DNA of 64,000 nt from Gammaproteobacteria bacterium (GCA_021773975.1 JAJFJN010000012.1:299-64298); one strand, 5' to 3'; shown: positions 6,848 to 61,085, counted from the first letter of the stretch. Translations and numbers: made by a program. The notes: generated by a model from the sequence alone, not told the origin.

Positions 6848-6848
6848 T

Positions 6849-7103
6849 ATGTCAGATGAAAAAGAAAAGAGCTACTTATTTGACCGGCCGGAAAATGTTG
6901 AACGGCTACTCAAGGGGTTCTATGCCATCTGCATTCTATTGGTGCTGGCCGATTTTGTTCTCCACCGCCACATTGGTTTTGGTTGGGAGGAGATACCGGC
7001 CTTTTACGCCATTTACGGCTTTGCCGCTTGTGTCGTGCTGGTCGTCATCGCAAAGAAGATGCGCAATGTTGTGATGCGGAAGGAAGATTATTACGATGAG
7101 TGA
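6849..7103 (+). CDS. Small 2-TM membrane protein embedded in the mrp operon
   Basis: 84 aa with two hydrophobic helices, tightly packed between two antiporter-like subunit genes. No family recognised. Confidence 0.5.
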   Translation: MSDEKEKSYLFDRPENVERLLKGFYAICILLVLADFVLHRHIGFGWEEIPAFYAIYGFAACVVLVVIAKKMRNVVMRKEDYYDE

Positions 7104-14702: not shown

Positions 14703-16943
<2,241 letters not shown>

Positions 16944-17038
16944 TCAGTGAAAAAGTTTTGGGAAAGTGCAATAGTCCCTGCCTTCAAGAATGTTGTGGTC
17001 TATTGCACTTACTGTTGCTGTTATGCCGCACTCAGGTA

Positions 17039-17746
17039 TCAGTCATCCCCACCCAATACACCGAGTAGATGCAGCAGGCTGGTGAAGAGATTAAAAATGG
17101 AGACATACAGGGTCACAGTGGCCATGATGTAGTTGGTCTCTCCGCCGTGAATGATCTCACTGGTCTGATACAGAATTAGCCCTGCCATCAGGAGAACAAA
17201 CATGGCTGAGACGGCTAGGGAGAGTCCAGGCATTTCAAAAAACAGAGCGCCTAGTCCAGCCAGAAAGGCCACCAGGATACCCACCATCAAAAAGCCCCCC
17301 ATGAAACTGAAATCCTTGCGACTGGTGAGGGCATAGCCAGACAGCCCCAGGAAAATAGCGCCAGTAGCGCCCAAGGCATTCATCACGACCTGTCCACCAT
17401 TGGGCAGACTAAGATAAGCGTTGAGTATTGGGCCGAGTGTGTAACCCATGAAGCCGGTTAGAGCAAAAACAAAAGCCAGACCCAGTGTGCTATCACGGAA
17501 TTTTGAGGTCAAAAACAGCAACCCGAAATAGCCGCCAAGGGTGAGCAATATCCCTGGATGAGGAAGGTTCAAAGCCATTGATGTGCCTGCAGCTAATGCA
17601 CTAAACAGCAGGGTCATGGAGAGTAACATGTAGGTATTGCGGATGACCTTGTTGGTGGCCAGCACCCCAGTCTGCGCACGGGCCGCAGCAGTTGCAGCCG
17701 ATTGTATATTCATGATGGAAAAACTCCTATTTGATTCAAGATTCAT
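17039..17746 (-). CDS. Bax-inhibitor-1/YccA family membrane protein
   Basis: 235 aa, 7 TM, with a BI-1 type C-terminus (IIHGGETNYIMATVTLYVSIFNLF). Confidence 0.85.
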   Translation of the reverse strand: MNLESNRSFSIMNIQSAATAAARAQTGVLATNKVIRNTYMLLSMTLLFSALAAGTSMALNLPHPGILLTLGGYFGLLFLTSKFRDSTLGLAFVFALTGFMGYTLGPILNAYLSLPNGGQVVMNALGATGAIFLGLSGYALTSRKDFSFMGGFLMVGILVAFLAGLGALFFEMPGLSLAVSAMFVLLMAGLILYQTSEIIHGGETNYIMATVTLYVSIFNLFTSLLHLLGVLGGDD

Positions 17747-26042: not shown

Positions 26043-26116
26043 TTGATTATGCGACACATAGAGGTTAAAAACACGGATATTCACTGCTGAAATAGAATGC
26101 AATGTCGCATAATCAA
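26043..26116. repeat. 14-bp perfect inverted repeat (TTGATTATGCGACA ... TGTCGCATAATCAA) with a 46-bp spacer
   Basis: Read directly: 26043-26056 is the reverse complement of 26103-26116. The right arm supplies the apparent ATG of the truncated sigma54-activator ORF. Confidence 0.7.
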
Positions 26117-26677
26117 CGTACTTATAGTAGCTTATTAATGGAGGGTCTACTCAGTCGACTTCAACTGGTGGCTAATAGTGATGTTAGTGTCTTTATTAGT
26201 GGTGAAAGTAGGACAGGAAAAGAGCTGCTGGCTCACGCTGTTCACCTGGCTAATCCAAGAGTCAACAACCCATTCCTAGCGGTTAACTGTGGTGCTATGC
26301 CGGAACAGTTATTGGAATCTGAGATATTTGGCCATAGTAAAGGGGCATTTACGGGCACCACATCAAATCACCAAGGGCTGTTTGAGGCGACTCATGGAGG
26401 GACTCTGTTTCTGGATGAAATTGGTGATATGTCTTTTAGTTTGCAAGTCAAGCTATTGAGAGTGTTATAGGAACATGAAGTGCGTCCTGTTGGTTCTACC
26501 AAAAGCATCTCTGTGGATATTAGGGTTGTCTCTGCCACTCACCGTAACCTGGAACGGGCAATGGCTGCGCGGGATTTTCGTGAGAATCTGTACTATCGAT
26601 TAAATGTGCTTGCTCTGGAGATACCCTCGTTGAAACATTTACTAGACTGTTCAATGCATTGTTTATTCATTCATTAG
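26102..26677 (+). pseudogene. Sigma54-dependent transcriptional activator remnant (AAA+ core only)
   Basis: The fragment reads VFISGESRTGKELLAHAVH...GAFTG...LFLDEIGDM...LLRVL*EHEVRPVGS...IRVVSATHRNL. There is an in-frame TAG at 26468-26470. The receiver/sensor and DNA-binding domains are missing. The Walker A motif reads GESRTGKE instead of GESGTGKE. Confidence 0.75.
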
Positions 26678-27493: not shown

Positions 27494-28153
27494 CTACTTC
27501 TTATTATTAGCCACCCAAACCGCTGCTTCTAATCTAGATCGTAAATTCAGCTTTTTTAGCAGGTGTTTTACGTGCACTTTCACTGTTCCTTCTGTTATAT
27601 CCAGCTTACGCGCAATAAGTTTATTACTATAGCCATTAGCAATGAGTTTTAATATCTGCTCTTCTCTTTGCGTAAGCCCGGCTTTTGATGGGGTTTTTGG
27701 TGCAGCATCCTCACGTAAGGCATGCGCCATTAACTCAGTTAGCTTATCGCAAATCACAAACTGACCATTTGCTGCAGTTTGCAGTCGTTCCAAAATATCC
27801 TCCGGCTCCATATCTTTAAGAAGATAACCATCTGCGCCCGCGCGCAATGCTGCAACTACATTTTCTTCATTATCCGATACCGTTAACATAATGACACGTG
27901 AATCGACGTCTGTAGCTTTAATTGCTTCAAGCGTCTCAATGCCACCCATGCCTTTCATGTTCATATCAAGCAAAATCAAATCTGGATTAAGCTTTACCGC
28001 TAATTCTAATCCTTCTTGACCCGACGCAGCCTCCCCCACTAGCGTCAATGAATCTACCAATGAAATAAGGTCAGCAACTCCTTTTCTGAACAAAGGGTGG
28101 TCATCAATTGCTATAATAGTATTTGTTTTTTTATCATTCATCATTAGACTCAT
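27494..28153 (-). CDS. narL: NarL/FixJ-family response regulator (REC plus LuxR-type HTH)
   Basis: 219 aa. The receiver carries DLILLDMNMKGMGG. The C-terminus carries LTQREEQILKLIANGYSNKLIARKLDITEGTVKVHVKHLLKKL. It overlaps the kinase gene by 4 nt. Confidence 0.85.
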   Translation of the reverse strand: MSLMMNDKKTNTIIAIDDHPLFRKGVADLISLVDSLTLVGEAASGQEGLELAVKLNPDLILLDMNMKGMGGIETLEAIKATDVDSRVIMLTVSDNEENVVAALRAGADGYLLKDMEPEDILERLQTAANGQFVICDKLTELMAHALREDAAPKTPSKAGLTQREEQILKLIANGYSNKLIARKLDITEGTVKVHVKHLLKKLNLRSRLEAAVWVANNKK

Positions 28154-30147
28154 TTATTTTGTGCATCTTTTACAACTGCGGTATCTACGATAACGTCTTG
28201 TGAGATCACCTGCTTAAAATCTACGATATTCTTAGCATCTGTTGAAAATTCCAACTTTACTCGTGTTCCACCCTTTTCACGTCGTGATAGCTCAATTTCC
28301 CCCCCGAGCCTACCTGCTCGCTCATTTATTATTGCTAAGCCATAATGATTACGGCGCTGTGCTAACTCTGATATTCCAATACCATCATCCTCAATACTAA
28401 TTGTGACTCGGCAACTATTACTATCAAAAAGCAACTTAACTTGAACGTTTTCTGCTTTCGAATGATTAACTGCATTAGACAATACTTCTCTCACCACCTG
28501 CAGGACATGAATCTCTTGATGTGCATTTAACTGACATTCATCTAATTCATTTTCTAAAGTAATATTTATTTCACTTCGTTTTCGCCAATCTTCAACTGTA
28601 TTCTCTACAGATTGAATCAAACCACTGCCTTCCATTTTAATACGAAAGGTTGTTAACAACTCCCGCAGCTGACGGTACGCTGAGCTAATACCTTCTCGCA
28701 TTTCACCTATAATGATTTGAACTTCCTGCTCTGTATCGGGCTTAGCTATAGTCATATCCAGACGTGTTGCTTGAATTTTCAGATATGACAACGACTGTGC
28801 TAACGAATCATGCAATTCACGTGCAATCACACTGCGCTCCTCCAACAATGCTAAGCGCCTGGATTCTGTAACACGTTGGGTCAGATTCAGTGCCATACCG
28901 ACATGACGGGCAACTGTTTCTAACATTTGTGTTTGTCGCTCTTCTACTCCACCACCAGGCAACACCTCCATAAATAACACACCAACCTGTGCATCTTTAT
29001 CTTTAATAGGAGTCGAGACAAGCTCTACCTCATGATCACCCGTCGTTGCCTTAAATATGTGGGTAGCACCATCAGCGTAACATTCATTACAATTAAGGTG
29101 AGAGCAGACATCAGGGATATCATCTACAGCATCCCTGGTAGAGGCCAACACAAGCTGGCTGGTAAGCGCATTTTTCCCTAAACAAATTGCACCCGGTCCA
29201 AATCCAAGTGGCTTCTCAATATCTTTTAATAGGTTTTCATACGTTGCATCTGACAGTGGAGCCTCACTCAAACGCCTAATCGTGTTATACAATAACTCTA
29301 ACGATTGGTTGCTACGCTCTAAATCAATTGTTTTATCTTTTACCCTTGCTTCTAAGTTCGCATACATCTTAGATAGATCTTCAGACATCTCATTAAAAGA
29401 AGCGCCTAACTGGCCTAATTCATCGTTAGCAATGTAATGAGTTCTAACAGAAAAATCCCCCATCCTTGCACTATTAGCACAAACCAATAACCTATCTAAC
29501 GGTGCCAGCACCTTTCGTGCAAGCAAGATAACGCTAAACAGCGCAGCACACAGCGTTAAAGCAAGAGAGACAATCATAGCCAGCTTCAAACTTTGAATCT
29601 TTGCCTCAGAGGTCTCTTCCAGTAGAGTTACAAAATTATCTATATCAAAAACAAAATCATTTATCACTGAGAGATATTCTTGCCTGACATTACTACGCAG
29701 ACCAGGGGAACTATCACCATATAGATTCCTAAGATCTTCCTTATATTTACGAGATTCAGCATAAGCCAAAAATGTGGGTTTAATCTCGCTGTTCCATCTT
29801 TGACTTAAGCGCCAATATGCATCTTGTAACTTATCCTTAGGGTTAACCGGAAGTGCCTCAACCAGCGCAGGATGAGTAAGACGATAATCAAATTCTAACA
29901 GCTCTGCCTCAATAGCCCGTGCAATCGAAGCGTTCTTACTCCTGATATCCTGATCTAGATCAATAACAGAGAGAATACGAAAGGATTGCATGCGTAAAGT
30001 ACCAGCCTGATTAATAGCACCTGCATCTCCACGAATAATCTCAGTTGTAAATACAGAACTCAACATGCCTACAAATGCCAAGGTTGTGATGGCCGCCATA
30101 GCCATACCAAGCCGCCGTAAGGTGGGCTTTTTATACAACCCAATCAT
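28150..30147 (-). CDS. narX: NarX/NarQ-type sensor histidine kinase
   Basis: 665 aa. The periplasmic domain carries a NarX P-box-like AINQAGTLRMQSFRI between two TM helices. It is followed by HAMP, a central Cys-containing GAF-like module (CSHLNCNEC), HisKA_3 (RELHDSLAQSLS) and HATPase domains. Confidence 0.8.
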   Translation of the reverse strand: MIGLYKKPTLRRLGMAMAAITTLAFVGMLSSVFTTEIIRGDAGAINQAGTLRMQSFRILSVIDLDQDIRSKNASIARAIEAELLEFDYRLTHPALVEALPVNPKDKLQDAYWRLSQRWNSEIKPTFLAYAESRKYKEDLRNLYGDSSPGLRSNVRQEYLSVINDFVFDIDNFVTLLEETSEAKIQSLKLAMIVSLALTLCAALFSVILLARKVLAPLDRLLVCANSARMGDFSVRTHYIANDELGQLGASFNEMSEDLSKMYANLEARVKDKTIDLERSNQSLELLYNTIRRLSEAPLSDATYENLLKDIEKPLGFGPGAICLGKNALTSQLVLASTRDAVDDIPDVCSHLNCNECYADGATHIFKATTGDHEVELVSTPIKDKDAQVGVLFMEVLPGGGVEERQTQMLETVARHVGMALNLTQRVTESRRLALLEERSVIARELHDSLAQSLSYLKIQATRLDMTIAKPDTEQEVQIIIGEMREGISSAYRQLRELLTTFRIKMEGSGLIQSVENTVEDWRKRSEINITLENELDECQLNAHQEIHVLQVVREVLSNAVNHSKAENVQVKLLFDSNSCRVTISIEDDGIGISELAQRRNHYGLAIINERAGRLGGEIELSRREKGGTRVKLEFSTDAKNIVDFKQVISQDVIVDTAVVKDAQNK

Positions 30148-30599
30148 TTAGAACACCAAAACCCATAACACTTAATCAACCAAGTCCGTGTATTTAAAAA
30201 AACAAATGTAACCATACAGCCCCCATTTTATTACTGTATAAATGAGAAGTTAATAACTCAATCACCTATAAAATTTAAGACCAAAAAAAGAATATATAAA
30301 AAACAACTCAAGACATATCGCTGTCAATTATTTGTTATTTATCATTTATCCAGCAATGCTCAATTAACTTAGTTAATAGTATTATATAGGCATCATATCT
30401 AACATATTTCTATTCTTTAACTATGACAACTAAAGACCTTACCTTTTCTGCCATAAAAAAATGGTAGAAAAACCTTATATTTGCTCTTAAAAAAGCTATA
30501 CCCCCAAATAACTCATTAGCATATTACACACCATAAACAGCATCAGATTAATAAGAACTTTCACAAGTATTTTCAGTAACTTACAAAACACTACCCAAG

Positions 30600-30615
30600 T
30601 ACCCATAAAGAGGTA
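30600..30615. promoter_or_regulatory. Candidate NarL/NarP 7-2-7 binding site (TACCCAT-AA-AGAGGTA)
   Basis: Both heptamers fit the NarL consensus TACYYMT; the second reads TACCTCT on the other strand. They are inverted with a 2-bp spacer, 126 bp upstream of the operon ATG. A third near-consensus heptamer, TACCCAA, lies at 30592-30598. Confidence 0.5.
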
Positions 30616-30740: not shown

Positions 30741-31619
30741 ATGTCATCAGAAAATAAACATGAGAGTTCCACTCACCATCTGCGTGAGTATGGAGTTCAA
30801 ACGCCGGGGACAAAGGGTATTCCTGGCAAAAGACGTTACTCAATGGTCATCGACCTCAGGAAATGCATTGGGTGCATGTCCTGTGTAGTAGCTTGCAAAG
30901 CCGAATATGGCGTTCCTCTAGGAGTCTGGCGAACCTGGGTTATGGTCGCAGATAAGGGGAGGTATCCAGATAGCAGACGCATCTTCATGCCTCGCCTGTG
31001 TAATCACTGCGATTACCCAATCTGCGTACGCAACTGCCCCACACAAGCCACCTTCAAACATGCAGAAGGCTTCGTGCTACAACGGTATAACCGTTGTATC
31101 GGATGTCGGACCTGCGTCATAGCCTGTCCATACAACGCCAGGCATTTCCTTCCAGCAAAACGCACCAACAACAACCTTCCCAAACTGGTTGTCGATAAGT
31201 GCACCTTCTGTATCCATAGGGTTAAGAAGGGATTGGTACCTGCATGCGTACAAGCCTGTGTTGGTGGCGCACGCATCTTTGGTGATGTTAACGATCCCAA
31301 GAGCGAAGTAGCAAAACTTACTGCAAAAGAGAAGGTTACAGTACTAAAACCTGAACTAGGCACAAGTCCATCCGTCTACTACATTGGTGGCGACTGGGAG
31401 ATTATGGATGAAACCCATAACTACAAACATCGCTCAGCTCAGCAGAAGGCAGAGTTCAATACCTTTAAACGCAATCATCACGGAGATGCATTCGCTGATA
31501 TCGTTGAAGGTGAGAACACCATGCACCATGTAGGCAAAAACATGTCTGACTTCCTGGCGTCAATACCACACAAGTTCCATGATGTGGTTGCTGCGCTCAA
31601 GAAGCTGCTGTTTGCATAA
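30741..31619 (+). CDS. Four-cluster [4Fe-4S] ferredoxin subunit of a complex iron-sulfur molybdoenzyme (PsrB/DmsB/TtrB-like)
   Basis: Four Cys groups are present: CIGCMSCVVAC, CNHCDYPICVRNCP, CIGCRTCVIACP and CTFC...ACVQAC. There is no signal peptide. A C-terminal extension of ~80 aa is His-rich. Confidence 0.85.
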   Translation: MSSENKHESSTHHLREYGVQTPGTKGIPGKRRYSMVIDLRKCIGCMSCVVACKAEYGVPLGVWRTWVMVADKGRYPDSRRIFMPRLCNHCDYPICVRNCPTQATFKHAEGFVLQRYNRCIGCRTCVIACPYNARHFLPAKRTNNNLPKLVVDKCTFCIHRVKKGLVPACVQACVGGARIFGDVNDPKSEVAKLTAKEKVTVLKPELGTSPSVYYIGGDWEIMDETHNYKHRSAQQKAEFNTFKRNHHGDAFADIVEGENTMHHVGKNMSDFLASIPHKFHDVVAALKKLLFA

Positions 31620-31631
31620 GGGGGGGCAACA

Positions 31632-32537
31632 ATGGAAACCTTAATTACATATAACGCCGTCCACCACAATCCGTGGGGGACACCCATTACCATTTACTTC
31701 TGGCTGGTTGGCGCCAGTGCCGGTTCATTTGTACTCTCCGCTTTTGGCTGGGTATTCGGCATCAAACGCTACAAACCACTAGCTCTGAGCGCATCAGTAT
31801 TGGCTATTGGCATGCTGATGATCGTTCCAGTGCTGCTGATTTGGGATCTGGGTAAACCATTCAGGTTTATCTACCTCATGCTACCAGGATACTGGCACGG
31901 CACGGCTCCCATGGCCTGGGGTTCTCTGCTGATCTTAAGCTACCCAGTCTCGATGTTTGTCTATACCTACTTTGTCATTAAAAATGACCAAAAATGGGCG
32001 AAAATAATAGGCATCATCGCTATTGTTCTAGCGCTCTCTACACACTGGTATACCGGTGTTGTTATGGAGCTGAACCCTGGCCGCTACATCAACCATACAC
32101 CGCTTGCTCCACTGTTATTTTTAACAGGTGCATTTATATCGGGTATCGGCTTGATGATCCTAGTGCTCTGGATCAAGAACTTCTTTATGAGTGAGGAGAA
32201 GAAGATCAAGTGGGCGCTTATGGAAGAGATGGCTCAATATATGATGTATGGCATCGTATTTGACTGCTTCCTGCTCTTTCTCGACTTCATGCAAACACAG
32301 TACGGAACCGCAAGCGAAAATATAGGGCATCATGAAGTATTGATGAATATTTTCTTCACTCCGTACATAATGCTTGAGACTGTTATCGGCCTGCTTCTTC
32401 CACTAGTTATTCTGTGTTCACCACTCAAACGCACAAGACTTGGCGTATATGGCGCCTCCCTCTTGGTCGCTGGCGGTGTATATGGCATGCGTATCTGGTG
32501 GGTTATGGGCGGCCAATACATGCAGTCCTTCTATTGA
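31632..32537 (+). CDS. NrfD/PsrC-type integral membrane quinone-interacting subunit
   Basis: 301 aa with about 8 TM helices, lying between the FeS and molybdopterin subunit genes. SD GGGGGG is upstream. Confidence 0.85.
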   Translation: METLITYNAVHHNPWGTPITIYFWLVGASAGSFVLSAFGWVFGIKRYKPLALSASVLAIGMLMIVPVLLIWDLGKPFRFIYLMLPGYWHGTAPMAWGSLLILSYPVSMFVYTYFVIKNDQKWAKIIGIIAIVLALSTHWYTGVVMELNPGRYINHTPLAPLLFLTGAFISGIGLMILVLWIKNFFMSEEKKIKWALMEEMAQYMMYGIVFDCFLLFLDFMQTQYGTASENIGHHEVLMNIFFTPYIMLETVIGLLLPLVILCSPLKRTRLGVYGASLLVAGGVYGMRIWWVMGGQYMQSFY

Positions 32538-32553
32538 TTTGGAGAATAGAATA

Positions 32554-34902
32554 ATGTCAAAAATCAACAGACGAGACTTCTTAAAAGCAGGCGCAGTTGC
32601 AACTACCGCAGCAGCAGTTCCCGGTGTGGGATCAGCTATGGAGCTAAAACTCGGTGGCGCCGACTTTCATCAAATCAGGACCTTTCATGAGCGCAAAAAG
32701 ACACCATATCTTTGCACCATGTGTCCCTATTTTGATGGCGGATTCTGCTACGAAGAAGCCGGTGAAATTGTTAAGGTCGAGGGCAACCCTGACCATATCG
32801 CATCCCGCGGTAAATTCTGTACCAAAGGACTAGCATCATTCTTCGGCGCATCTGACCCCGACAGAATCCTCGCTCCTATGAAACGCTCAGGTCCACGTGG
32901 CTCAGGCCAATGGAAAGAGATCAGCTGGGATGAAGCCATCGCTGAGGTTTCTTCAAAGGTACAAGCCGCTGTCGATGCCAATCCAGACAGCGTTGTCCTA
33001 AACGAAGGCGCCTTCAAAGAGGGTGGCACAACCCGTTTTATGGATACACTGGGTTCAAGCTCAGTCATCCGTAGTCGGGTTCCATCCATCAGCAGCGTGG
33101 CTAAACAGGCGGTGCTTAAAAAGACCTTTGGTGTGGACTCCACACTGCCGGACTTTGAAAACACCAAGTATGTCCTAAACTTCGGCGAAAACATTATTGA
33201 GACAGCCCTTCCATTTGCTCAACGTCTCACAGATGGCATCGTCAACAACCGCTTGAAGCTTGTCACCTTTGACGTGCGTATGTCACACACTGCAGGAAGA
33301 AGTAGTGAATGGATACCTGTATTTCCAGGTAGTGACGGTATTATCGCACTGGCTATGGCCAATGTGATCATGGAAAAAAATCTGGCAAATGTTGACTTTA
33401 TAAATAGCTGGACTAATACCACTGCAAGTGAGTTGGCTCAGCAATTGAAAGCCTACACACCAGCCAAGGCTCAAAAGGCGAGTGGTGTCTCAGCAAAGGA
33501 TATCAAACGTCTTGCCATTGAGTTTGCCAAAAGCAAACCAGCAATAGTCGTTAGTCAAAATGGCCTGAGCTTCCATAAAGGTGGTGTAGATGCAGAAGCA
33601 GCAGCTCAGCTTCTGACCATCATAACTGGCAATATTGATATTGAAGGTGGTAACTGTCTGCCACGCCAGTTTGATATCGCTTCAATCCAACCCGCTCCTG
33701 CTGCTTCAGGCAGTGCCTCACGCCAGCTGAACCACACCTTTCCATTTGAGGTAAAAGGCGGCAAACGTAAGGTACAGGTAATGTTCAACCATATGAGCAA
33801 TCCAGCCTACTCATCTCCTGCAGCAAGCGTCTGGCGCGATGTGCTAAAAGAAGAGAGCCTGATTCCATATCTGGTTGATTTCAGCCCCTTCATGAGTGAA
33901 ACATCTGCATTGGCAGATATCATCCTTCCTGATGTGGTTCCAACAGAGCGGCATGATGTTGGCAGCAGTCCAACAGCACTGCACCCATGGCTCACCAAGA
34001 CCATCCCTGGTGTTAAAGCTCGAGGCCAGGCACAGGATGTTCGTGAAACCCTGAAAAAGATTGTCGAAACCATCGATGCAGATGGTAGCCGTGGCATGAA
34101 AGAGTTTTGGTCCTTTAAAAATGCCAAAGACTGGGTCAAACAAGAGGTGGCTGGTATCGGGCTGGATAAAAAAGCTCTCAAAGCACTCGAAAAAGGTGTT
34201 TATCCGGCCTACGGTAAGATTGACCCCAACACGCGAAAGATTGTCAAAAAAGGCGAGCCTATCCCTGCTGATTACAAAACCTACGAATCAGCTGGATTTG
34301 CAACACCCTCTGGCAAGGTTGAGGTCTCTACACCAACATGGACAGAAAACTCACGACTCTCTAACATTAAGTCAAATGAGTTTGTTTTAACCACCTTCAA
34401 GGTGAGCTATCAAAGCCTCTCTCGCACATCCAATCTGAAATTATTGTCAGAGTTATGGCATGCCAATCCACTATGGATCAATAAAGAAATTGCTCTAAAA
34501 CTGGGAATCGGCGATGGCGAACTGGTTAGAGTTAAGAGCGAGGTGGGTTACCTGGTAACTAAAGCCTGGCTGACTCAGGGCATTCATCCTCAGGTCATCG
34601 GGTTCTCTACCTCTGTAGGGCGCTCTGCCTATGGTCGTGTTGCTCAAGCTGATCCTACTGCAAAAACACCACTTGCAGATGACTCACAGGCAGATGAGGA
34701 TATTCTTGCCAACCTCTGGTGGAGAGATGGTGGTATCAACCCCAACGACATCATCCCACTAGCCATTGATCCAGCATCTGGAGCACAGGCCTGGAATGAT
34801 ACGGTGGTAACGATCTCACCTTCAGAATCAGGCGACAAATATGGTGACATCAAAGTCGATAACGCCAAACATGAAGCCATATATAAGAGACAAATGGGTT
34901 AA
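32554..34902 (+). CDS. Tat-exported molybdopterin (bis-MGD) oxidoreductase-type catalytic subunit, substrate unknown
   Basis: The start is set at the ATG at 32554 (SD GGAGA 9 nt upstream), giving the twin-arginine signal MSKINRRDFLKAGAVATTAAAVPG. An N-terminal FeS motif CTMCPYFDGGFC-x23-C is present. Typical CISM segments occur (GNPDHIASRGKFCTKG, KEISWDEA). 782 aa. Confidence 0.85.
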   Translation: MSKINRRDFLKAGAVATTAAAVPGVGSAMELKLGGADFHQIRTFHERKKTPYLCTMCPYFDGGFCYEEAGEIVKVEGNPDHIASRGKFCTKGLASFFGASDPDRILAPMKRSGPRGSGQWKEISWDEAIAEVSSKVQAAVDANPDSVVLNEGAFKEGGTTRFMDTLGSSSVIRSRVPSISSVAKQAVLKKTFGVDSTLPDFENTKYVLNFGENIIETALPFAQRLTDGIVNNRLKLVTFDVRMSHTAGRSSEWIPVFPGSDGIIALAMANVIMEKNLANVDFINSWTNTTASELAQQLKAYTPAKAQKASGVSAKDIKRLAIEFAKSKPAIVVSQNGLSFHKGGVDAEAAAQLLTIITGNIDIEGGNCLPRQFDIASIQPAPAASGSASRQLNHTFPFEVKGGKRKVQVMFNHMSNPAYSSPAASVWRDVLKEESLIPYLVDFSPFMSETSALADIILPDVVPTERHDVGSSPTALHPWLTKTIPGVKARGQAQDVRETLKKIVETIDADGSRGMKEFWSFKNAKDWVKQEVAGIGLDKKALKALEKGVYPAYGKIDPNTRKIVKKGEPIPADYKTYESAGFATPSGKVEVSTPTWTENSRLSNIKSNEFVLTTFKVSYQSLSRTSNLKLLSELWHANPLWINKEIALKLGIGDGELVRVKSEVGYLVTKAWLTQGIHPQVIGFSTSVGRSAYGRVAQADPTAKTPLADDSQADEDILANLWWRDGGINPNDIIPLAIDPASGAQAWNDTVVTISPSESGDKYGDIKVDNAKHEAIYKRQMG

Positions 34903-34943: not shown

Positions 34944-35609
34944 TTGAAGACAACAACTAAAGCCATGCTTTTGATCATTGGTGCAATCGTCCTGGTTCTG
35001 CTCTTTTCTGCTCTGAGCTGTACCAGTGATCGATTCCAACGAATCAGCGCATGCACCGTATGCCATGAAATATTTGTTGATTATGACGAATACAAACCCA
35101 TCGGCATCGCAAGTGAAGAGATTGAAGACTACAAACCAAGAGAAGTCTTTGAGCCCGGTGCATTCGACGTAACAGTTGGCTGCGCAGAGTGTCATGCCTA
35201 CCCTTACGAGGAGTACCGTGAATCACCTCACTATGACAATGAGCTTGAGGTACGTCCTGGCTGCGTTGGCTGCCACGAACCACACAGCGTACGTGAGATC
35301 CTGCACTGGAAGTTTATTTACCTGAACCAAGGTGTTGTAGGAGAAAGCCCATTCCATGCTGTCTCTAACAGCTTGCGCGATATCGAGATGTGGGAAGAGG
35401 AGCTTCGACCTAAAATGGCTGCAAAAGTACGTCAGCAAATGGTTGAAGAGAAAAGTGAAAAGTGCCAGGTCTGCCATAAGACTGAAAGTGAGTGGTGGCA
35501 GGATATAGGCCAGCACAAAACCATGAAGGAAAAAGGCGTCTCCTGCATCAACTGCCACTACAACCTTGTTCACGCAGAGGTTCCATGGCCAGAGATGGAA
35601 GAGGAGTAA
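34944..35609 (+). CDS. Membrane-anchored NapC/NirT-family cytochrome c with five haem motifs
   Basis: TTG start 7 nt after SD GGAGGA, and an N-terminal TM helix. Five CXXCH motifs: CTVCH, CAECH, CVGCH, CQVCH and CINCH. The last four align with the NapC pattern (C..CH..YxEY...HY, C..CH.PH, C..CH, CI.CH....H). Confidence 0.8.
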   Translation: MKTTTKAMLLIIGAIVLVLLFSALSCTSDRFQRISACTVCHEIFVDYDEYKPIGIASEEIEDYKPREVFEPGAFDVTVGCAECHAYPYEEYRESPHYDNELEVRPGCVGCHEPHSVREILHWKFIYLNQGVVGESPFHAVSNSLRDIEMWEEELRPKMAAKVRQQMVEEKSEKCQVCHKTESEWWQDIGQHKTMKEKGVSCINCHYNLVHAEVPWPEMEEE

Positions 35610-35775
35610 CCACTAAATGTGTAGCCTAGCTGTGGCTATGAACTTATCCATAGCTGGGTTACTCTAAAGCTCTATTCATCATAGATACCTTATGCTGAAT
35701 ATAGTATTAACCAGCGGGGGCTTACCCCTAACAACTTGTATTTCTTCGAACTATCAAGTATCCGTGGAGGAAACC

Positions 35776-36168
35776 ATGAAGCGATTGAAAAAGAGTATCA
35801 ACATAGCAGCAGCAATTGCAGTAGCTTTAACTATGGGCTTAACTACCGGCCTTGCTGTCGCAGCTGACTGCGATGATGAAGATGCCGTCAAAACTGTACA
35901 GAAAAAGGTCTACAAAAAGAGTTGTAAAAAATGCCATGGTTCCAAAGGCAACGGCAAAGGTCCAGGTGCTAAAGGCATGGATCCTGCGCCACCTGATTGG
36001 ACTGCTGGCACAGAAAAATCCGATGATGATCTTTACCAGATCATTATGGAAGGCAGCAAAGACACCGAAATGAAGGGTTGGAAAGCTGGTGTCGCTAAAG
36101 CAGGTAAAGAGGTCTCTGAAGATGAAGCGCATACTCTGGTATGCATCGTCCATGGCTTCAAAAAATAA
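35776..36168 (+). CDS. Periplasmic monohaem class I c-type cytochrome
   Basis: Start set at the ATG at 35776 (SD GGAGG 5 nt upstream). The signal peptide reads ...GLAVAA. A single CKKCH is present, with a Met-containing segment downstream (IIMEGSKDTEMKGW). Confidence 0.75.
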   Translation: MKRLKKSINIAAAIAVALTMGLTTGLAVAADCDDEDAVKTVQKKVYKKSCKKCHGSKGNGKGPGAKGMDPAPPDWTAGTEKSDDDLYQIIMEGSKDTEMKGWKAGVAKAGKEVSEDEAHTLVCIVHGFKK

Positions 36169-36214: not shown

Positions 36215-36250
36215 TTGCACCATAATAAAATTATCCGGGAGGGTAGAGTA

Positions 36251-37264
36251 ATGCTGAATAAGCGTAGCACATGGCTGCTGTCGGTAATGCTGACTGCAAG
36301 CCTATTCTTGTTTACAGGTGCAGTACATTCTGCAGCAAAAGCAGCGCCGGCACCGGCCCCTAAAGCAGCGGCACCCGCTGCTCCCGCAGTAGATGACGAC
36401 ACCGTAAATCTCGTATATGGCGATATCGTCATGACCAGAACCAGAGAAGGTATGGAAGAGGGCGAAGTAGAAGCTGTCGTGTTTCCACACTGGTTCCACC
36501 GAATTCGTTTCCGCTGCAAGGTCTGCCATGAAGATACCTTTGTAACCAACAAAGGCGAAAATATTGTCGACATGGATCAGATCAGTGCTGGCGAGAAATG
36601 TGGCATGTGCCATGATGGCTCCGTTGCATGGGACCCACTTGAGTGCGAAAACTGCCACTACTATCCAATGGAACAGCTAGATGCTGAAGCAGCGCCACCA
36701 CCTGAAGAGACCAACCCTGCCAACCTGCTATTCGCTGGTCGTGGCGGAAAGATAGCTGGCAAAGGCGATCGTCGTAAACCATCAGGTTCTGCCTTCAAAT
36801 GGGGCGGCGGCTGGCAACCACGTGCTTTCTCCATGGCGGGTCTTCCAAAAGATAAATATGGTCTCGTAGATTGGATCAAGATCACCAAAAACGGCATGCT
36901 TCTACCAAAGGGTTCAATCGATCCAGAAGCCCCACTGTATGAATCTCCTGTTCACTATGAATTTGATGCGGACGGTGAAGAGGACATCGAAGACATGGTG
37001 ATCAAAGTAAAGAGCAAGAGCATTGCTGAAGTGCTCTTTCCTCACACCTTGCACACTTGGTGGCTAAACTGTAAAAGCTGTCATCCACACCGTTTTGTCC
37101 GTACCGCGGGTGATACCCCAATGACCATGAGAGAGATGGCCAAAGGCAAGTACTGCGGCGAGTGTCACGGTAAAGTCGCATTCCCGCTTGAGGATTGCGG
37201 TAAATGCCACAACAGAGAGAAAGTTGCCGCATGCAAAGCAAGCGATAACTGCACATTTGACTAA
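36251..37264 (+). CDS. Periplasmic hexahaem cytochrome built from two c7-type trihaem domains
   Basis: Start at the ATG at 36251 (SD GGGAGGG). Signal peptide, then an Ala/Pro-rich linker (AAKAAPAPAPKAAAPAAPA). Two units of the pattern FPHxxH..C..CH...M....G..CG.CH.G..A....C..CH are present, giving CKVCH, CGMCH, CENCH, CKSCH, CGECH and CGKCH. Confidence 0.8.
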   Translation: MLNKRSTWLLSVMLTASLFLFTGAVHSAAKAAPAPAPKAAAPAAPAVDDDTVNLVYGDIVMTRTREGMEEGEVEAVVFPHWFHRIRFRCKVCHEDTFVTNKGENIVDMDQISAGEKCGMCHDGSVAWDPLECENCHYYPMEQLDAEAAPPPEETNPANLLFAGRGGKIAGKGDRRKPSGSAFKWGGGWQPRAFSMAGLPKDKYGLVDWIKITKNGMLLPKGSIDPEAPLYESPVHYEFDADGEEDIEDMVIKVKSKSIAEVLFPHTLHTWWLNCKSCHPHRFVRTAGDTPMTMREMAKGKYCGECHGKVAFPLEDCGKCHNREKVAACKASDNCTFD

Positions 37265-37294
37265 ATTGGCATAGTAAACGTAGTGGGAGTGGTC

Positions 37295-38491
37295 ATGATG
37301 AATAAAATATTGAGATGTATAACCATCGCCTTGTTCTTATTCTCATGTACCACTCCTTTTGCTTTTGCCGAGGAGAGAGTTCTTCCCAAAAAGATGACAC
37401 CTGCCAAGTTGGAAAAGTCAGTCCATCGCCAGCTTAAATATATTGATAAACGCCTTCTTGCAGGTAAAAGTGCCGATCAAATCCTAAATAGTGGAAACGA
37501 TAAAGCCATATTCATCCTGAATGAAAGCAAGAAAAAGCGCGATATTATTGCCAAACAGATCGAAGAAGGAGAGATGGAACCAGCCTATTGGGCATTAAAA
37601 GATCTTGGCAATGAACTTCGTGCTGCCTCAAAACTTGTACGCGCAAAAAACGTATCCGCAAAAAAGATAAAGGATGACCTAGACCTAGCAAAAATTAAAA
37701 GTGATGCATACGAAGAACGCGCCAAGCAACGCGGCATTCATGATGGTAGCGGTGGCAAAGAGGCGCACGACCTATTTGAACAAGCTGAAGAAAAGCGCAA
37801 AGAAGCCCGCCAACTTGAAAAAAACAAGAAGTATAAAGAATCCACCAGCGCCTATCTCAGCTCAACTGAATTTATAAAAAAAGCCATTGCCACATCAAAA
37901 CGGCAAGGATATAGCAGCAGCAAAATCAATAAAGAAGAAAAAAGAGTACTGCCTAAAGGGATGACGCCAGAAAAATTGAAAAAATCCGTAATCAGGCAAT
38001 TCAAATATATAGACACCCGCCAGCTTTCAGATAAAAGTCACCAAAAAATAAAAGATAGCCAGAATAGTGAAGCTATAACCATTTTTAACCGGGGACGTAA
38101 ACGCATTAACACTATTGCAAGCAAGATTGATGAAGAGCAGTATGAAGAGGCTTATTGGGCGCTACAAAAACTTGCCAGCTCCTTAAAAGACGCCATGAAA
38201 CTAGCTCTAGCTAAAAAAACTGAAGCTAAAAACGACAAGAACGAAATGGATAGTGCTCGCATCACAAGTGATGCCTACCTCGAACGTGCAAGACAGAGAG
38301 GCATTCATGAAGGCAAAGGTGGTGCCGAAGCCCTGGAGCTTTTTAAACGCGCAGAAGCTGAGCGCACTGATGCCATCAACGCACAATCAAAAGAACAATA
38401 TAAATGGGCATCAAAAGGCTACCAGCTTTCAACTGAATTCCTAAAGAAATCCATTACATCAGCAAAAGAGTGGCAGAAATCCAACGAATAA
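37295..38491 (+). CDS. Secreted helical protein made of two tandem ~185-aa repeats, unknown function
   Basis: The signal peptide MMNKILRCITIALFLFSCTTPFAFA has a possible AFA/E cleavage site or LFSC lipobox. The halves starting at nt 37370 and 37934 align end to end (RVLPKKMTPAKLEKSV../RVLPKGMTPEKLKKSV.., AYWALKDL/AYWALQKL, SDAYEERAKQRGIHDG/SDAYLERARQRGIHEG, LSSTEFIKKAI/LSTEFLKKSI). Confidence 0.7.
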   Translation: MMNKILRCITIALFLFSCTTPFAFAEERVLPKKMTPAKLEKSVHRQLKYIDKRLLAGKSADQILNSGNDKAIFILNESKKKRDIIAKQIEEGEMEPAYWALKDLGNELRAASKLVRAKNVSAKKIKDDLDLAKIKSDAYEERAKQRGIHDGSGGKEAHDLFEQAEEKRKEARQLEKNKKYKESTSAYLSSTEFIKKAIATSKRQGYSSSKINKEEKRVLPKGMTPEKLKKSVIRQFKYIDTRQLSDKSHQKIKDSQNSEAITIFNRGRKRINTIASKIDEEQYEEAYWALQKLASSLKDAMKLALAKKTEAKNDKNEMDSARITSDAYLERARQRGIHEGKGGAEALELFKRAEAERTDAINAQSKEQYKWASKGYQLSTEFLKKSITSAKEWQKSNE

Positions 38492-38563
38492 ATCACATCG
38501 AAGAGGCATTAAAAAACATACATTGACCATGGCAAATCCTGATTCACTGCGCGAGTCCACTGC

Positions 38564-39748
38564 ATGAAGCAACTCAAGTTACTTCATGCATTACTGTGGC
38601 TTTTTACTGCCCTGCCCTTCACCCTATTTCTTTCAACAGCAAGCTATGCTGAAGACACACCTTTCCGCATTAATTTCGTTACGAACTATAAGTCATTTCA
38701 ATTCAAAGCACAGGAAGAACTCATAAAAAGTAGCAAGGCAATCATGCCTGGTGAAATAGAAGCGCTTATTAACGATGCAATGTCGGCAGAAATCAGCCTA
38801 GGGCAAAAAATGTTTATGCTGGATGCTGCCAATGCTATGGCCAGCGGTTACAACCACTATCATGGTGGGGGGAAAAAATTACTTCGCAAAATCAACAAAC
38901 TCATAAAAGAAGAGCTAGAAAAAGAGAAAGCAAAAAATGCAGAATTAATGAAGTGGAATGATGAAGAGCGTTTTCTTGGTAACTTTGTCATGAAAACCCG
39001 TGAAAAAGAGATGGCCGAAAAAGGACTCGCTCCTGTCATCTACCCTCATTGGGTGCATCGTATCTGGTTTGAATGCAAAGTCTGTCACCAAGACATCTTT
39101 ATTATGAAGCGGTGGCGTAATGACATCACCCAAGCAAAAATTGAAGCCGGACAGCAATGCGGAAAATGCCACAATGGTGAACTTGCCTTTGGCGTTAAAG
39201 ATAACTGTGACCGCTGTCACCTCGCAGGAAAGCCAGAAGCTGACAAACTACATAATGCAAAGCGTGTTGACCATAAGGCTATAAAAGAAGTTGCTAAAAA
39301 AGTAGGTGCCGAATGGAATTTTGACAAACTTCCCAACGGCCAGCTTCCTGTCGATCGCTTTGGATTTATCGATTGGTTAAATATGAAAAAAGTGGGGGTA
39401 TTCAAACCAATACACTCGCTAAATGAAAATTATAAACCTGAAACCAGGGACAATATAATTCTCTTTGAATCTAAAAGTAAGGCGAAAAATGTTCTTTTTA
39501 GCCACGACGTACATTCAAGCTGGATCAAATGCTCATCCTGCCATCCTGAAGTTTTTACTAAAACATTAACCAACAATGTAAAAATGGTCAGGATGTCAAA
39601 GGGACAGTACTGCGGCCACTGCCACGGCAAGGTCTCTTTTACATTTGCAGACTGCACACGCTGTCATATGCAGGAAAAAGGAGTCATGGTTGACGGCGCC
39701 CTACTTCATAAAGGAAAACCTAAAAAGAAGAAAAAGAAGAAACCCTAA
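38564..39748 (+). CDS. Periplasmic hexahaem cytochrome: N-terminal helical domain plus two c7-type trihaem domains and a poly-Lys tail
   Basis: Signal peptide ending SYA/E. Six motifs: CKVCH, CGKCH, CDRCH, CSSCH, CGHCH and CTRCH. The C-terminus reads KGKPKKKKKKKP. Confidence 0.8.
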   Translation: MKQLKLLHALLWLFTALPFTLFLSTASYAEDTPFRINFVTNYKSFQFKAQEELIKSSKAIMPGEIEALINDAMSAEISLGQKMFMLDAANAMASGYNHYHGGGKKLLRKINKLIKEELEKEKAKNAELMKWNDEERFLGNFVMKTREKEMAEKGLAPVIYPHWVHRIWFECKVCHQDIFIMKRWRNDITQAKIEAGQQCGKCHNGELAFGVKDNCDRCHLAGKPEADKLHNAKRVDHKAIKEVAKKVGAEWNFDKLPNGQLPVDRFGFIDWLNMKKVGVFKPIHSLNENYKPETRDNIILFESKSKAKNVLFSHDVHSSWIKCSSCHPEVFTKTLTNNVKMVRMSKGQYCGHCHGKVSFTFADCTRCHMQEKGVMVDGALLHKGKPKKKKKKKP

Positions 39749-39772
39749 ATTTCACACAACGAGGTCATTATT

Positions 39773-40195
39773 ATGAGCGACACAATCAACCATCCAGAAG
39801 ACATCCGCTTCTACAAAAAACTTATACGACTAACTGACCAACAACTTGCATCGATCCATAAGAATCTTGCAAGAGATGCTAGTTTCTTCCATAAACATCT
39901 ATTTCTATTTCGAAATGTTCTTTTCAAAAAAACCATTCTTAAACTGCTAACTCAGAAAGAAGCTCGGGTCGATGAAAAAGAAGCACTTAATGAAATGATG
40001 GCCGAACTAAAGTTTATAGAAGCAGATAATAATGAATGGAAAACGCATGGCAAAGATGAGATTGATTACATTCGGATAATGGTTCATGGTTTGCGTGATA
40101 TCTCAGGTGAAGAAGTTAAAGAAGAAACCGAAACAAAAGGAGAGAAAAAAGCAAGCAAGCTCACATACCGGCTCAAGATCAACGAATGTAGTTAA
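39773..40195 (+). CDS. Hypothetical protein without a signal peptide inside the cytochrome operon
   Basis: 140 aa, SD GAGGT upstream, no Cys-rich or haem motif, acidic/basic helical C-terminus. No family recognised. Confidence 0.5.
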   Translation: MSDTINHPEDIRFYKKLIRLTDQQLASIHKNLARDASFFHKHLFLFRNVLFKKTILKLLTQKEARVDEKEALNEMMAELKFIEADNNEWKTHGKDEIDYIRIMVHGLRDISGEEVKEETETKGEKKASKLTYRLKINECS

Positions 40196-40227
40196 GTAAC
40201 GCTAACAAACAAATATTCAAGCATTTT

Positions 40228-41181
40228 ATGCTACATGCCACAAAATTCCTGTTTAGTTGCCTAATCCTATTATCAGCTAATGCCTACGCTGAATATGGCG
40301 ACATCATCTTAAACAGAACAGCTGATGCCATGCGTGAGGCAGAGGTTGATGATGTAGTCTTTCCCCATTGGTTCCATCGTATACGTTTTCGTTGCAGTGT
40401 ATGCCATGAAAATATATTTAAAATAAAAGCTGGCTCGAATGAAATTTCAATGTCTACCATCACAGAAGACAAACAAGCTTGCGGCGTATGCCATGATGGA
40501 CTGGTTGCTTGGGAACCACTTGAATGTGAGCGCTGCCACGCACTAGAAGAGGGCTGGAGTTCTGGTGCTATTCAGCATTCCATCCGAGAAGATGAAAAAA
40601 AGAACATTTTACTTGGAATTGTTGGAACAGTTGCCAAGCCCTACTCAAAATTCATGGAAATTGGCACGGGCTGGCATCCTTTGGCTCTAGCTAAAAGTGG
40701 GTTACCACTCGACAAATATGGCCTTGTAAACTGGGCCGATGCCGTACGCAAAAAAATAGTTAACCCACTATGGAGCCTCAACCCAGAAGATGATATTTCA
40801 GAGCACGAGCTAAGAGATACAAATATTCTATTTACAGCTAAAGGAGATAGCATGCCTGATGTTATCTTCCCGCATGACATCCATAGCTATTGGCTAGAAT
40901 GTAAAATTTGTCACGGCACACAAGATGGCCCTATGTTTATTAAAGAATTAGGAGCCAATAATGTAACCATGATGGAAATTGGCCAGGGAAAATGGTGTGC
41001 CAGATGTCATGACAAAATTGCATTCCCCATAAGCGATTGCAATCGCTGCCATAACCACCCAAAGGGCAAACCAATTTCCAATAGCGTATTAATACGCCCT
41101 CTTAAGGTAGCTCCACCCCCTACTCTTCCCCCCATTGATGAACCTGCACAGCAAAATTCTGTTGATAGCGATTTTTTCTAG
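40228..41181 (+). CDS. Periplasmic hexahaem cytochrome (two c7-type domains), paralogue of 36251-37264
   Basis: Signal peptide ending AYA/E. Six motifs: CSVCH, CGVCH, CERCH, CKICH, CARCH and CNRCH. It shares VVFPHWFHRIRFRC.VCHE with the first paralogue. The C-terminus is Pro-rich (KVAPPPTLPPIDEPAQ). Confidence 0.8.
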   Translation: MLHATKFLFSCLILLSANAYAEYGDIILNRTADAMREAEVDDVVFPHWFHRIRFRCSVCHENIFKIKAGSNEISMSTITEDKQACGVCHDGLVAWEPLECERCHALEEGWSSGAIQHSIREDEKKNILLGIVGTVAKPYSKFMEIGTGWHPLALAKSGLPLDKYGLVNWADAVRKKIVNPLWSLNPEDDISEHELRDTNILFTAKGDSMPDVIFPHDIHSYWLECKICHGTQDGPMFIKELGANNVTMMEIGQGKWCARCHDKIAFPISDCNRCHNHPKGKPISNSVLIRPLKVAPPPTLPPIDEPAQQNSVDSDFF

Positions 41182-41259
41182 ATCAAAAAGTACAAAAGCC
41201 ATACAATGTCCCGCTTATAATCATCCAACAGCCATCTTTAGTTACGAGAAATACACATA

Positions 41260-41604
41260 ATGACCAGAGTATTACAGTCCATAGCGCTTTTCGTAGCTTT
41301 AACTACCCAAGCATTAGCAATTGATACAATTAACATTATCTTTGACTCAAAGGTAAGTAGTATGAAAGAAGCGGGCTTAGGAGCTGTCACATATCCGCAT
41401 AAGTTACACGAAGAACTCTATCAGTGTGATGATTGCCACCCAAGAATATTCATCGAAAAAAAGGGCGGGAATGACGTCAATATGCAAAAAAACATGACTG
41501 AACAATATTGTGGTTTTTCAGGGTGTCACAATAGCGCATACGCTTTTCCATTATATCTTTGTGACTACTGCCATGAGGTTTTACCAACTGCAGGTAAGAA
41601 ATAG
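41260..41604 (+). CDS. Periplasmic single-domain c7-type trihaem cytochrome
   Basis: 114 aa with a signal peptide ending ALA/I. The pattern is VTYPHKLHEELYQCDDCH ... YCGFSGCH ... CDYCH. The middle site is CX4CH rather than CXXCH. Confidence 0.75.
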   Translation: MTRVLQSIALFVALTTQALAIDTINIIFDSKVSSMKEAGLGAVTYPHKLHEELYQCDDCHPRIFIEKKGGNDVNMQKNMTEQYCGFSGCHNSAYAFPLYLCDYCHEVLPTAGKK

Positions 41605-61083: not shown

Positions 61084-61085
61084 AT

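Follow-up and report, generated by a model that had tools for sequence, protein, structure and literature searches.

A Psr-type subunit without its molybdenum ligand in a nirS-linked four-gene module: a candidate quinol:cytochrome c complex

We analysed a 64,000-nucleotide stretch of DNA from Gammaproteobacteria bacterium (GCA_021773975.1 JAJFJN010000012.1:299-64298), hereafter the window, around an open reading frame (ORF) at positions 32554-34902 that encodes a molybdopterin-type protein, here called subunit A. Subunit A has lost the cysteine that would coordinate molybdenum, carries an aspartate in its N-terminal Fe-S motif (FS0), and is encoded with a ferredoxin-like subunit (B), a membrane anchor (C) and a pentahaem cytochrome in a four-gene unit whose relatives commonly lie near nirS, the gene for cytochrome cd1 nitrite reductase. 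We lean towards reading this unit as a quinol:cytochrome c complex resembling Qrc and alternative complex III (ACIII), in which A would be a decaying subunit of the Psr type.

Subunit A lacks the cysteine ligand of its nearest relatives

The ORF is read on the plus strand and translates to 782 residues, with one terminal stop and zero in-frame TGA codons. A twin-arginine translocation (Tat) motif, RRDFLK, occupies residues 6-11 (Pfam TAT_signal) and is accompanied by the domains Molybdop_Fe4S4, Molybdopterin and Molydop_binding, which are the domain set of the molybdenum/tungsten-bis-pyranopterin guanine dinucleotide (Mo/W-bisPGD) superfamily, also known as the MopB or DMSO reductase superfamily. 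The segment KEISWDEA falls at residues 121-128 and the stretch GSSSVIRSRVPSISSVAKQAVLKKTFG at residues 167-193, while cysteines occur at positions 54, 57, 65, 89 and 368 and nowhere else. The original prediction, made from the sequence alone, had described a Tat-exported protein of 782 residues with five cysteines, the KEISWDEA segment, no in-frame TGA and no canonical cysteine ligand, and in all of these points it agrees with what we found. It had also proposed structural modelling. An AlphaFold2 model built on a 31-sequence alignment (mean predicted local distance difference test score, pLDDT, 79.9; predicted template-modelling score, pTM, 0.83) matched Fdh, ArrA, PsrA, acetylene hydratase and NapA about equally in Foldseek (template-modelling score, TM, 0.68-0.72); the modelled fold is that of a generic MopB protein and does not separate the subfamilies.

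When a profile of 31 sequences was aligned with proteins of the PDB, the ligand residues of PsrA (Cys173), ArrA (Cys), Shewanella FdhA (Cys), FdhF (Cys) and an F420-dependent Fdh (selenocysteine, Sec) all fell on Ser180, which in the window protein stands in the context P-S-I-S180-S. Single-sequence alignments were dropped for this purpose because they were inconsistent, placing the PsrA cysteine on Ile179 and those of ArrA and Fdh on Pro177. Across 116 family members at at least 54% identity, column 180 holds Gly in 57, Ser in 56 and Asn in 3, and cysteine is absent from the aligned position in every one; the column that follows holds Asn, Thr, Cys, Ser or Gly. The surrounding loop (residues 176-183) has a mean entropy of 1.84 bits vs 1.11 for the mature protein, and ranks 53rd most variable of 746 windows of the protein, within the top 7%.

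A serine at this position had led the original prediction to offer, as one of two readings, that it ligates Mo as in dimethyl sulfoxide (DMSO) and trimethylamine N-oxide (TMAO) reductases, giving a Ser-type enzyme on a Psr-like scaffold. For the window protein the serine itself stands: it aligns with the Cys or Sec ligands of five solved enzymes, it is kept in the window subclade and in about half of the family, and it is followed by S-S-V-A-K-Q, which may resemble the S-T-x-A-x-Q of DMSO and TMAO reductases. As a family trait it does not, since Gly replaces it in 49% of members that are ~63% identical and share the same operon. Given the Gly/Ser/Asn column and the variable loop, a conserved Ser-Mo bond is unlikely. 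The nearest solved and profile relatives, moreover, are Psr, Phs, Arr and Fdh rather than the Ser-type clade, DMSO reductase structures align to residues 251-366 only, and the locus has no TorD/DmsD-type chaperone gene. We consider a Ser-ligated enzyme improbable.

An aspartate takes the place of the third FS0 cysteine

All of the same 116 members have C54, C57 and C89. At position 61, 106 of them carry Asp and 8 carry Cys, and position 65 is Thr in 70, Ser in 28, Ala in 10 and Cys in 6, the last being the window protein's own subclade. Position 61 lies four residues after C57 and is followed by a conserved G62, matching the canonical C-x2-C-x3-C-G, and the eight members with Cys61 (e.g. CPYVCGGF) indicate that Asp and Cys are interchangeable at the third FS0 position. 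Since position 61 aligns with the canonical third cysteine and Gly62 is conserved, the motif reads as CX2CX3(D/C)X27C, with the usual spacing and Asp in the third Cys position; the CX2CX7C motif with a four-residue insertion that had been proposed earlier gives way to a substitution at normal spacing. In the window protein the set is C54, C57, D61 and C89, plus K91, and the cluster may be an Asp-ligated [4Fe-4S] or a [3Fe-4S]. An Asp also occupies the third FS0 position in the Cys-ligated sister clade described below, so the aspartate is older than the loss of the Mo ligand.

Just past the predicted Tat cleavage site, residues 29-50 (window 32638-32703) carry a segment, MELxLGGxDFHQIRTFHxR, that is highly conserved in the family, with M29, E30, L33, G34, G35 and R47 invariant. 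Its model confidence is low, and mature MopB proteins do not usually begin in this way; it may be a docking element.

Subunit A belongs to a populous, unnamed family

At least 120 clusters share 46-95% identity with subunit A. A separate search of 1.84 billion cluster representatives gave 634 relatives below E 1e-30. This well-populated family has no name of its own; annotation pipelines label its members 'thiosulfate/polysulfide reductase chain A' or 'selenocysteine-containing anaerobic dehydrogenase'. Its hosts include Sedimenticola/Polarisedimenticolaceae, Arenicellales, Halieaceae, Beggiatoaceae (Halobeggiatoa, Marithrix), Rhodospirillaceae and many Magnetococcales, and the window protein is closest to gammaproteobacterial metagenome-assembled genomes (MAGs) from hydrothermal vents (92% identity to L003; 88% to Sedimenticola and Polarisedimenticolaceae MAGs).

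No curated NCBIfam model reaches its cut-off for subunit A. The best is PhsA (NF012032; 253.8 bits, cut-off 694), with dmsA_ynfE at 184.5 bits (cut-off 777.7), QrcB (NF041783) at 168.8 bits (cut-off 440), arsenite_ox_L at 29.9 bits (cut-off 359) and the TorA models at <31 bits. The original prediction had named, as the outcome that would count against it, a ligand residue aligned elsewhere together with placement in a well-characterised family of the same FS0 spacing; the protein falls in no such family, and every NCBIfam model fell short. Identity with QrcB was considered and rejected, because the window protein and ten close relatives all score below the cut-off; for relatives P0120-P0134 the QrcB model gave 138-248 bits against the same cut-off of 440. 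Among PDB entries the top relative is T. thermophilus PsrA (2VPW; profile E 5e-55), ArrA comes next, and ActB (6LOD_B) matches the family profile weakly (E 1.6e-6 over ~45 residues).

Several source annotations would make A an ordinary thiosulfate or polysulfide reductase (PhsA/PsrA), and the best NCBIfam match and best PDB match do point that way. However, the PhsA score stands far below its cut-off, the cysteine ligand is missing at the aligned position throughout the 116 members, the gene order is B-C-A plus cytochrome and not psrABC, and the context is nirS and narXL rather than sulfur reduction, so that we give this identity very little credence.

The four-gene unit is conserved and linked to nirS

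We compared the window proteins with 47 related loci by tblastn. Wherever a family locus extends far enough to include all four genes, B, C, A and the pentahaem cytochrome occur as a conserved unit, which spans Sedimenticolaceae, Arenicellales, Rhodospirillaceae, Magnetococcales, Halieaceae and Beggiatoaceae. A nirS gene lies at most 5 kb away in 10 of 16 family loci (Magnetococcales L010 and L049; L050; Rhodospirillaceae-type L052; L053; L054; a Halieaceae contig; Arenicellales L005 and L006; L008). In the other six, five of Sedimenticolaceae type and that of Halobeggiatoa, no nirS was seen within 5 kb. The usual order is nirS, a small cytochrome c, B, C, A and the NirT-like gene, followed by the haem d1 genes nirE/C/F/DLGH/J/N, and norCB or nosR is nearby at some nirS-linked loci. 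A NarX/NarL-like pair lies upstream in the Halieaceae contig, as it does in the window. Taken together, the nirS synteny, narXL and the NarL box described below tie the module to nitrate/nitrite respiration and not to sulfur reduction. At L048 (Candidatus Halobeggiatoa) the NrfD and Mo-subunit genes are separated by one that encodes a 23S rRNA intervening-sequence protein (PF05635; 9540-9893).

Ligand loss goes together with chaperone loss and cytochrome gain

In an approximate neighbour-joining (NJ) tree of 51 sequences, drawn without support values, the family groups with P0121 (48% identity, Gly at the ligand position), P0122, P0123, P0124 and P0129 in a clade, X, all of whose members lack the ligand. 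Its sister, clade Y (L011A, L012A, P0120, L013A and P0135; ~40% identity), keeps the cysteine in the motif H-T-S-[IV]-C-E-S-S and has the FS0 Asp. A NarJ/TorD-family chaperone gene (PF02613) stands beside A in the Cys-keeping sister-clade loci L011 (12773-13633), L012 (12764-13618) and L015 (8530-9228); L011 also has a MoaC gene (16824-17324), and L013 has a gene that is rhodanese-like by sequence motif (7632-8063). No NirT-like gene adjoins A in the Cys-keeping clade-Y loci examined, L012 having a weak NapC-like match (28%) ~9 kb upstream of A. In clade X the pentahaem cytochrome follows A directly at every locus examined, those of P0121, P0122 and P0123 among them, and the chaperone was seen at none, all examined family loci included.

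Within clade X, P0122, P0123, P0124 and P0129 (41-43% identity; loci L055 and L056) have lost all FS0 cysteines. In these FS0-less relatives the GGxCLPR motif persists, alongside the genes for NrfD and the pentahaem cytochrome. Since FS0 is gone while NrfD and the cytochrome remain, A cannot be the redox terminus in these relatives. At L056 the pentahaem cytochrome is fused to an extra monohaem domain.

On this tree the ligand disappears together with the chaperone, while the cytochrome comes in, and some lineages appear to have lost FS0 afterwards. This is the trajectory expected if A became non-catalytic, and three stages of decay would be represented: (1) both the Cys ligand and the chaperone in place; (2) no ligand, but FS0 retained and the cytochrome acquired; (3) FS0 lost. 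The original prediction had missed the pentahaem cytochrome as a fourth gene, the embedding among nirS genes, narXL with its NarL box, and the Cys-keeping sister clade with its chaperone.

The operon and its regulation in the window

Subunit A is the third gene of a tight operon with gaps of 12, 16 and 41 bp, and the NrfD-anchored three-subunit scaffold that had been predicted is present as genes B, C and A. The features are as follows.

27494-28153, minus strand: NarL-type response regulator, divergent from the operon (NCBIfam NarL equivalog NF007935, 321.9 bits, cut-off 250)
28150-30147, minus strand: NarX/NarQ-type nitrate/nitrite sensor kinase (NCBIfam NarQ 414.7 bits, cut-off 553; NarX 383.4 bits, cut-off 578)
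30600-30615, plus strand: exact NarL 7-2-7 box, TACCCAT-AA-AGAGGTA, matching TACYYMTNNAKRRGTA, ~125-140 bp upstream of the first gene
30741-31619, plus strand: subunit B, PsrB/TtrB/DsrO-like ferredoxin (Pfam Fer4_11; NCBIfam TtrB 214.7 bits, DsrO 203.6 bits)
31632-32537, plus strand: subunit C, NrfD/PsrC-type quinone-interacting membrane anchor, 301 aa (Pfam NrfD 1.6e-31, profile 7-310 of 313)
32554-34902, plus strand: subunit A, Tat-exported Psr/Phs-like MopB protein (ORF, Pfam, profile alignment)
34944-35609, plus strand: membrane-anchored pentahaem NapC/NirT-family cytochrome (Pfam Cytochrom_NNT, PF03264, 2.8e-25, residues 80-212)
35692-36168, plus strand: monohaem class-I cytochrome c with signal or anchor helix (Pfam Cytochrom_C; one CXXCH)
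36215-37264, plus strand: hexahaem cytochrome of two c7-type trihaem domains (Pfam Cytochrome_C7 in two stretches; NCBIfam nanowire_3heme 128 bits; six CXXCH)
37283-38491, plus strand: 402-aa secreted, repetitive, charged protein of unknown function (no significant Pfam match; 51-83% identity in Sedimenticolaceae loci)
38564-39748, plus strand: second hexahaem c7-type cytochrome, 394 aa, with C-terminal oligo-lysine tail KKKKKKKP
39773-40195, plus strand: 140-aa protein of unknown function (no Pfam match; 50-80% identity in L001-L004 and L007)
40228-41181, plus strand: third hexahaem c7-type cytochrome (Pfam, haem motifs)
41260-41604, plus strand: trihaem c7-type cytochrome, one site being CX4CH (Pfam, haem motifs)

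Subunit B has 16 cysteines in four complete groups of four, corresponding to four [4Fe-4S] sites, has no signal peptide, and shares 73-80% identity with its Magnetococcales, Rhodospirillaceae and Arenicellales homologues. Subunit C would belong to the size class with 8 transmembrane helices (TMH), being at 301 aa too short for the 10-TMH class of QrcD and ActC. The pentahaem cytochrome scores 89.5 bits against PF03264, above the cut-off of 24.1, and is thus a NapC/NirT member; it has one N-terminal transmembrane helix and CXXCH motifs at residues 37, 80, 107, 174 and 201, four of which map to the tetrahaem core, with the extra haem lying between the helix and that core. The operon contains no Rieske gene.

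The sensor kinase falls below the NarQ and NarX cut-offs yet scores far above any other family for both. The NarL box, in the 593-bp intergenic region between narX and the operon, is the sole match to TACYYMTNNAKRRGTA in the window at up to one mismatch, with 0.27 expected window-wide; the consensus is that of E. coli, and the box is a putative regulatory site here. A near-heptamer, TACCCAA, lies just upstream of it (30592-30598). A promoter-like -35/-10 pair at 30666-30694 matches the consensus weakly, scans for sigma-70 promoters and for terminators gave match counts no higher than in shuffled controls, and an FNR/Dnr-box scan returned 75 matches at up to two mismatches, none of them convincing in the promoter region.

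The genes past the pentahaem cytochrome (the monohaem cytochrome c, the c7 set and the two proteins of unknown function) occur in Sedimenticolaceae-type loci only. Within the c7 set (36215-41604) the three hexahaem cytochromes, each composed of two trihaem domains of c7 type, are paralogous; the set is interleaved with the 402-aa and 140-aa proteins, and in Sedimenticolaceae-type loci the c7 set takes the place that nirS holds elsewhere.

Farther from the operon, a 122-aa ORF at 26102-26470 resembles by eye a fragment of a sigma-54 activator AAA+ domain (GESGTGKE-like Walker A) and is probably a truncated pseudogene. Three consecutive Proton_antipo_M genes (Mrp or complex I antiporter-like; 3909-8802) are followed by a CitMHS/TrkA-C transporter gene (8821-10587), a monomeric isocitrate dehydrogenase (PF03971, 1299 bits) is encoded at 14703-16934, and the 3' end of the window (59260-63998) holds RecD and UvrD/RecB-like helicase genes.

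A quinol:cytochrome c complex or a ligand-free enzyme

The match in subunit inventory (a cofactor-less MopB homologue, an Fe-S protein, an NrfD-type subunit and a penta- or hexahaem cytochrome) is what suggests a function like that of Qrc or ACIII. In such a complex quinol would be oxidised at the C/B interface, and electrons would pass along the Fe-S clusters of B to the pentahaem cytochrome, which may contact either A or B, and on to periplasmic soluble c-type cytochromes. They would finally reach NirS in most relatives and, in the window genome, the c7-type multihaem cytochromes under NarXL (nitrate/nitrite) control. Subunit A, bearing the sole Tat signal, would serve the export of the signal-less B and cap the Fe-S chain; it keeps FS0 with its Asp third ligand, may hold a pterin cofactor and is probably not a catalytic site. 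This comes close to the cofactor-less scaffold like ActB that the original prediction had offered as its other possibility.

Several observations weigh against a quinol:cytochrome c complex of this kind. FS0 is kept, and the 301-aa anchor matched by Pfam NrfD has the 8-TMH size that is usual in genuine molybdoenzymes. As a rule NapC/NirT cytochromes oxidise quinol unaided, which would leave B and C unexplained. The dinucleotide-binding motifs are the most conserved parts of subunit A (entropy 0.37-0.62). At 125 alignment columns that are at least 70% conserved in 48 Cys-ligated relatives, the consensus is kept at 0.84 in the family and 0.83 in the Cys-ligated group, vs 0.73 in 60 other ligand-less relatives and 0.69 in the FS0-less ones, and this retention argues that a pterin cofactor may still be bound. 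FS0 (C54, C57, D/C61, C89) and Lys91 are essentially invariant in the family; Lys91, in the motif C-x-K-G, is kept at 0.99 vs 0.33 in other ligand-less relatives, and its equivalent links FS0 to the pterin in known enzymes. Only the small residues Gly, Ser and Asn occur at position 180, where other ligand-less relatives have Tyr, Lys, Leu, His, Arg or Trp, a pattern that suggests limited space next to a metal site still in place. Finally, QrcD has 10 TMH (PMC6303296), vs an anchor of 8-TMH size in the window.

Such features bear on a rival account, in which A is either an active enzyme that binds the metal of its Mo/W-bisPGD without an amino acid as ligand, in the manner of AioA and IdrA, or a Mo-pterin relay between FS0 and the cytochrome. 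Its substrate would be a periplasmic N- or S-oxyanion or a sulfide species, and electrons would be exchanged by way of B and C with quinone and by way of the cytochrome with NirS. In its favour, FS0, Lys91 and the motifs binding molybdopterin guanine dinucleotide (MGD) are kept at the level of Cys-ligated relatives, and column 180 admits only three residues; R173, S174, K184, C368 and R371, near the predicted active site, are likewise invariant or nearly so in the family, C368 and R371 forming the conserved motif GGxC368LPR371. The set of five Fe-S clusters that makes up a normal Psr-type wire is complete, the anchor is of 8-TMH size, and pentahaem cytochromes of the NapC/NirT family are direct partners of molybdoenzymes in Tor and Dor. 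Ligand-free Mo sites, moreover, are known from AioA and IdrA (PMC10100899).

However, the loop expected to line the metal's first coordination sphere falls within the most variable 7% of the protein. A NarJ/TorD chaperone, encoded in the Cys-keeping sister clade, is found in no family locus; FS0 has disappeared altogether from close relatives that carry the same gene set; and the context names no substrate. The FS0-less relatives also keep R371 and C368, which are therefore not evidence of redox catalysis, and they keep D240, R242 and D261 as well, so that retention of the MGD motifs is downgraded as proof of cofactor binding. We regard a ligand-free enzyme or relay as possible but rather unlikely, and assign what probability remains to functions outside the readings discussed here.

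Relation to known systems

By sequence PsrA (2VPW) and PhsA are closest to subunit A, and they share with it the fold (TM 0.71 in Foldseek), a Tat signal, an N-terminal FS0, a partner with four [4Fe-4S] clusters and an NrfD-type anchor of 8-TMH size. They differ at the ligand, where PsrA Cys173 corresponds to Ser in the window protein and Gly, Ser or Asn in the family, and at the third FS0 ligand, the window protein having three Cys and Asp61; the module also differs in its extra pentahaem cytochrome gene, its nir/nar context and its sub-cut-off score.

QrcABCD likewise combines a membrane-anchored multihaem cytochrome, a Tat-exported, ligand-less MopB homologue (QrcB), a four-cluster Fe-S protein and an NrfD-type subunit (PMC6303296, PMC13059093). 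QrcB, however, is without any redox cofactor (PMC13059093), whereas the window family keeps FS0; QrcA is a c3-type hexahaem cytochrome rather than a pentahaem one of NapC/NirT type, the gene order differs, and Qrc reduces quinone in sulfate respiration, whereas modules of the window type sit in denitrification clusters. ACIII is a quinol:cytochrome c oxidoreductase with a Psr/Arr-like module, a MopB protein without Mo-bisPGD and a pentahaem cytochrome (PMC5928083, PMC7439408, PMC10100899), but ActB fuses the MopB-like and Fe-S parts that are separate genes (A and B) in the window and holds a [3Fe-4S], ActC and ActF have 10 TMH, and ACIII has additional subunits.

AioA and IdrA are the only MopB catalytic subunits known with a Mo-bisPGD that lacks an amino-acid ligand, and they have a small residue at the ligand position and a non-standard FS0 (PMC10100899). 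The window family shares the small residue (Gly, Ser or Asn), but the two are not close relatives of the window protein, and Aio has a [3Fe-4S] FS0 and a Rieske partner and no PsrB/NrfD module. NirT of Pseudomonas (Stutzerimonas) stutzeri, encoded in the nirSTBM cluster, is like the window cytochrome a membrane-anchored NapC/NirT-family protein of nir clusters. Cytochromes of the window type are set apart within that family by five haems, the extra one N-terminal to the core (that of TorC is C-terminal), and by always being paired with B-C-A.

We found no description of a nirS-linked B-C-A-cytochrome module in the searchable literature, including that on Sedimenticola and Beggiatoa, and the module is not listed in a review of NrfD-type complexes. 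A superfamily phylogeny gives FhcB, Nqo3 and ActB as the only cofactor-less lineages and AioA/IdrA as the ligand-free ones. For orange Guaymas Beggiatoaceae one paper reports genes labelled A, B and C of a 'thiosulfate reductase' that adjoin an octahaem nitrite/tetrathionate reductase (PMC6449678), and these genes may be the same module. Two features may set the present complex apart from others built of NrfD, Fe-S, relic MopB and cytochrome subunits, namely an Asp-bearing FS0 kept after ligand loss and a systematic linkage to nirS.

Implications for denitrification and for the MopB superfamily

The family is without the defining ligand, and its genes lie in nitrite-reductase clusters; conclusions about the sulfur cycle based on its presence in Beggiatoaceae, relatives of Sedimenticola-like symbionts, Magnetococcales and others are therefore probably wrong. 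The aspartate at the third FS0 position, common to Cys-ligated and ligand-less members, offers cluster chemistry (type and potential) that can be measured. Should A carry a ligand-free Mo/W-bisPGD on a Psr-type B/C scaffold, with an Asp-ligated FS0 and wiring to a NirT-like cytochrome in nirS clusters, a combination we entertain only tentatively, the site would be a new periplasmic oxidoreductase coupling an N- or S-compound directly to nitrite reduction, or the first Mo-pterin acting purely as a relay. The stepwise decay of a molybdoenzyme into a scaffold, as the tree suggests it, provides a model, open to test, of the possible origin of Qrc and ACIII. A complex that passes electrons from quinol through cytochrome c to NirS, should this reading hold, would amount to a bc1-independent electron supply missing from current denitrification schemes, and the complex is widespread among sulfur-oxidising denitrifiers.

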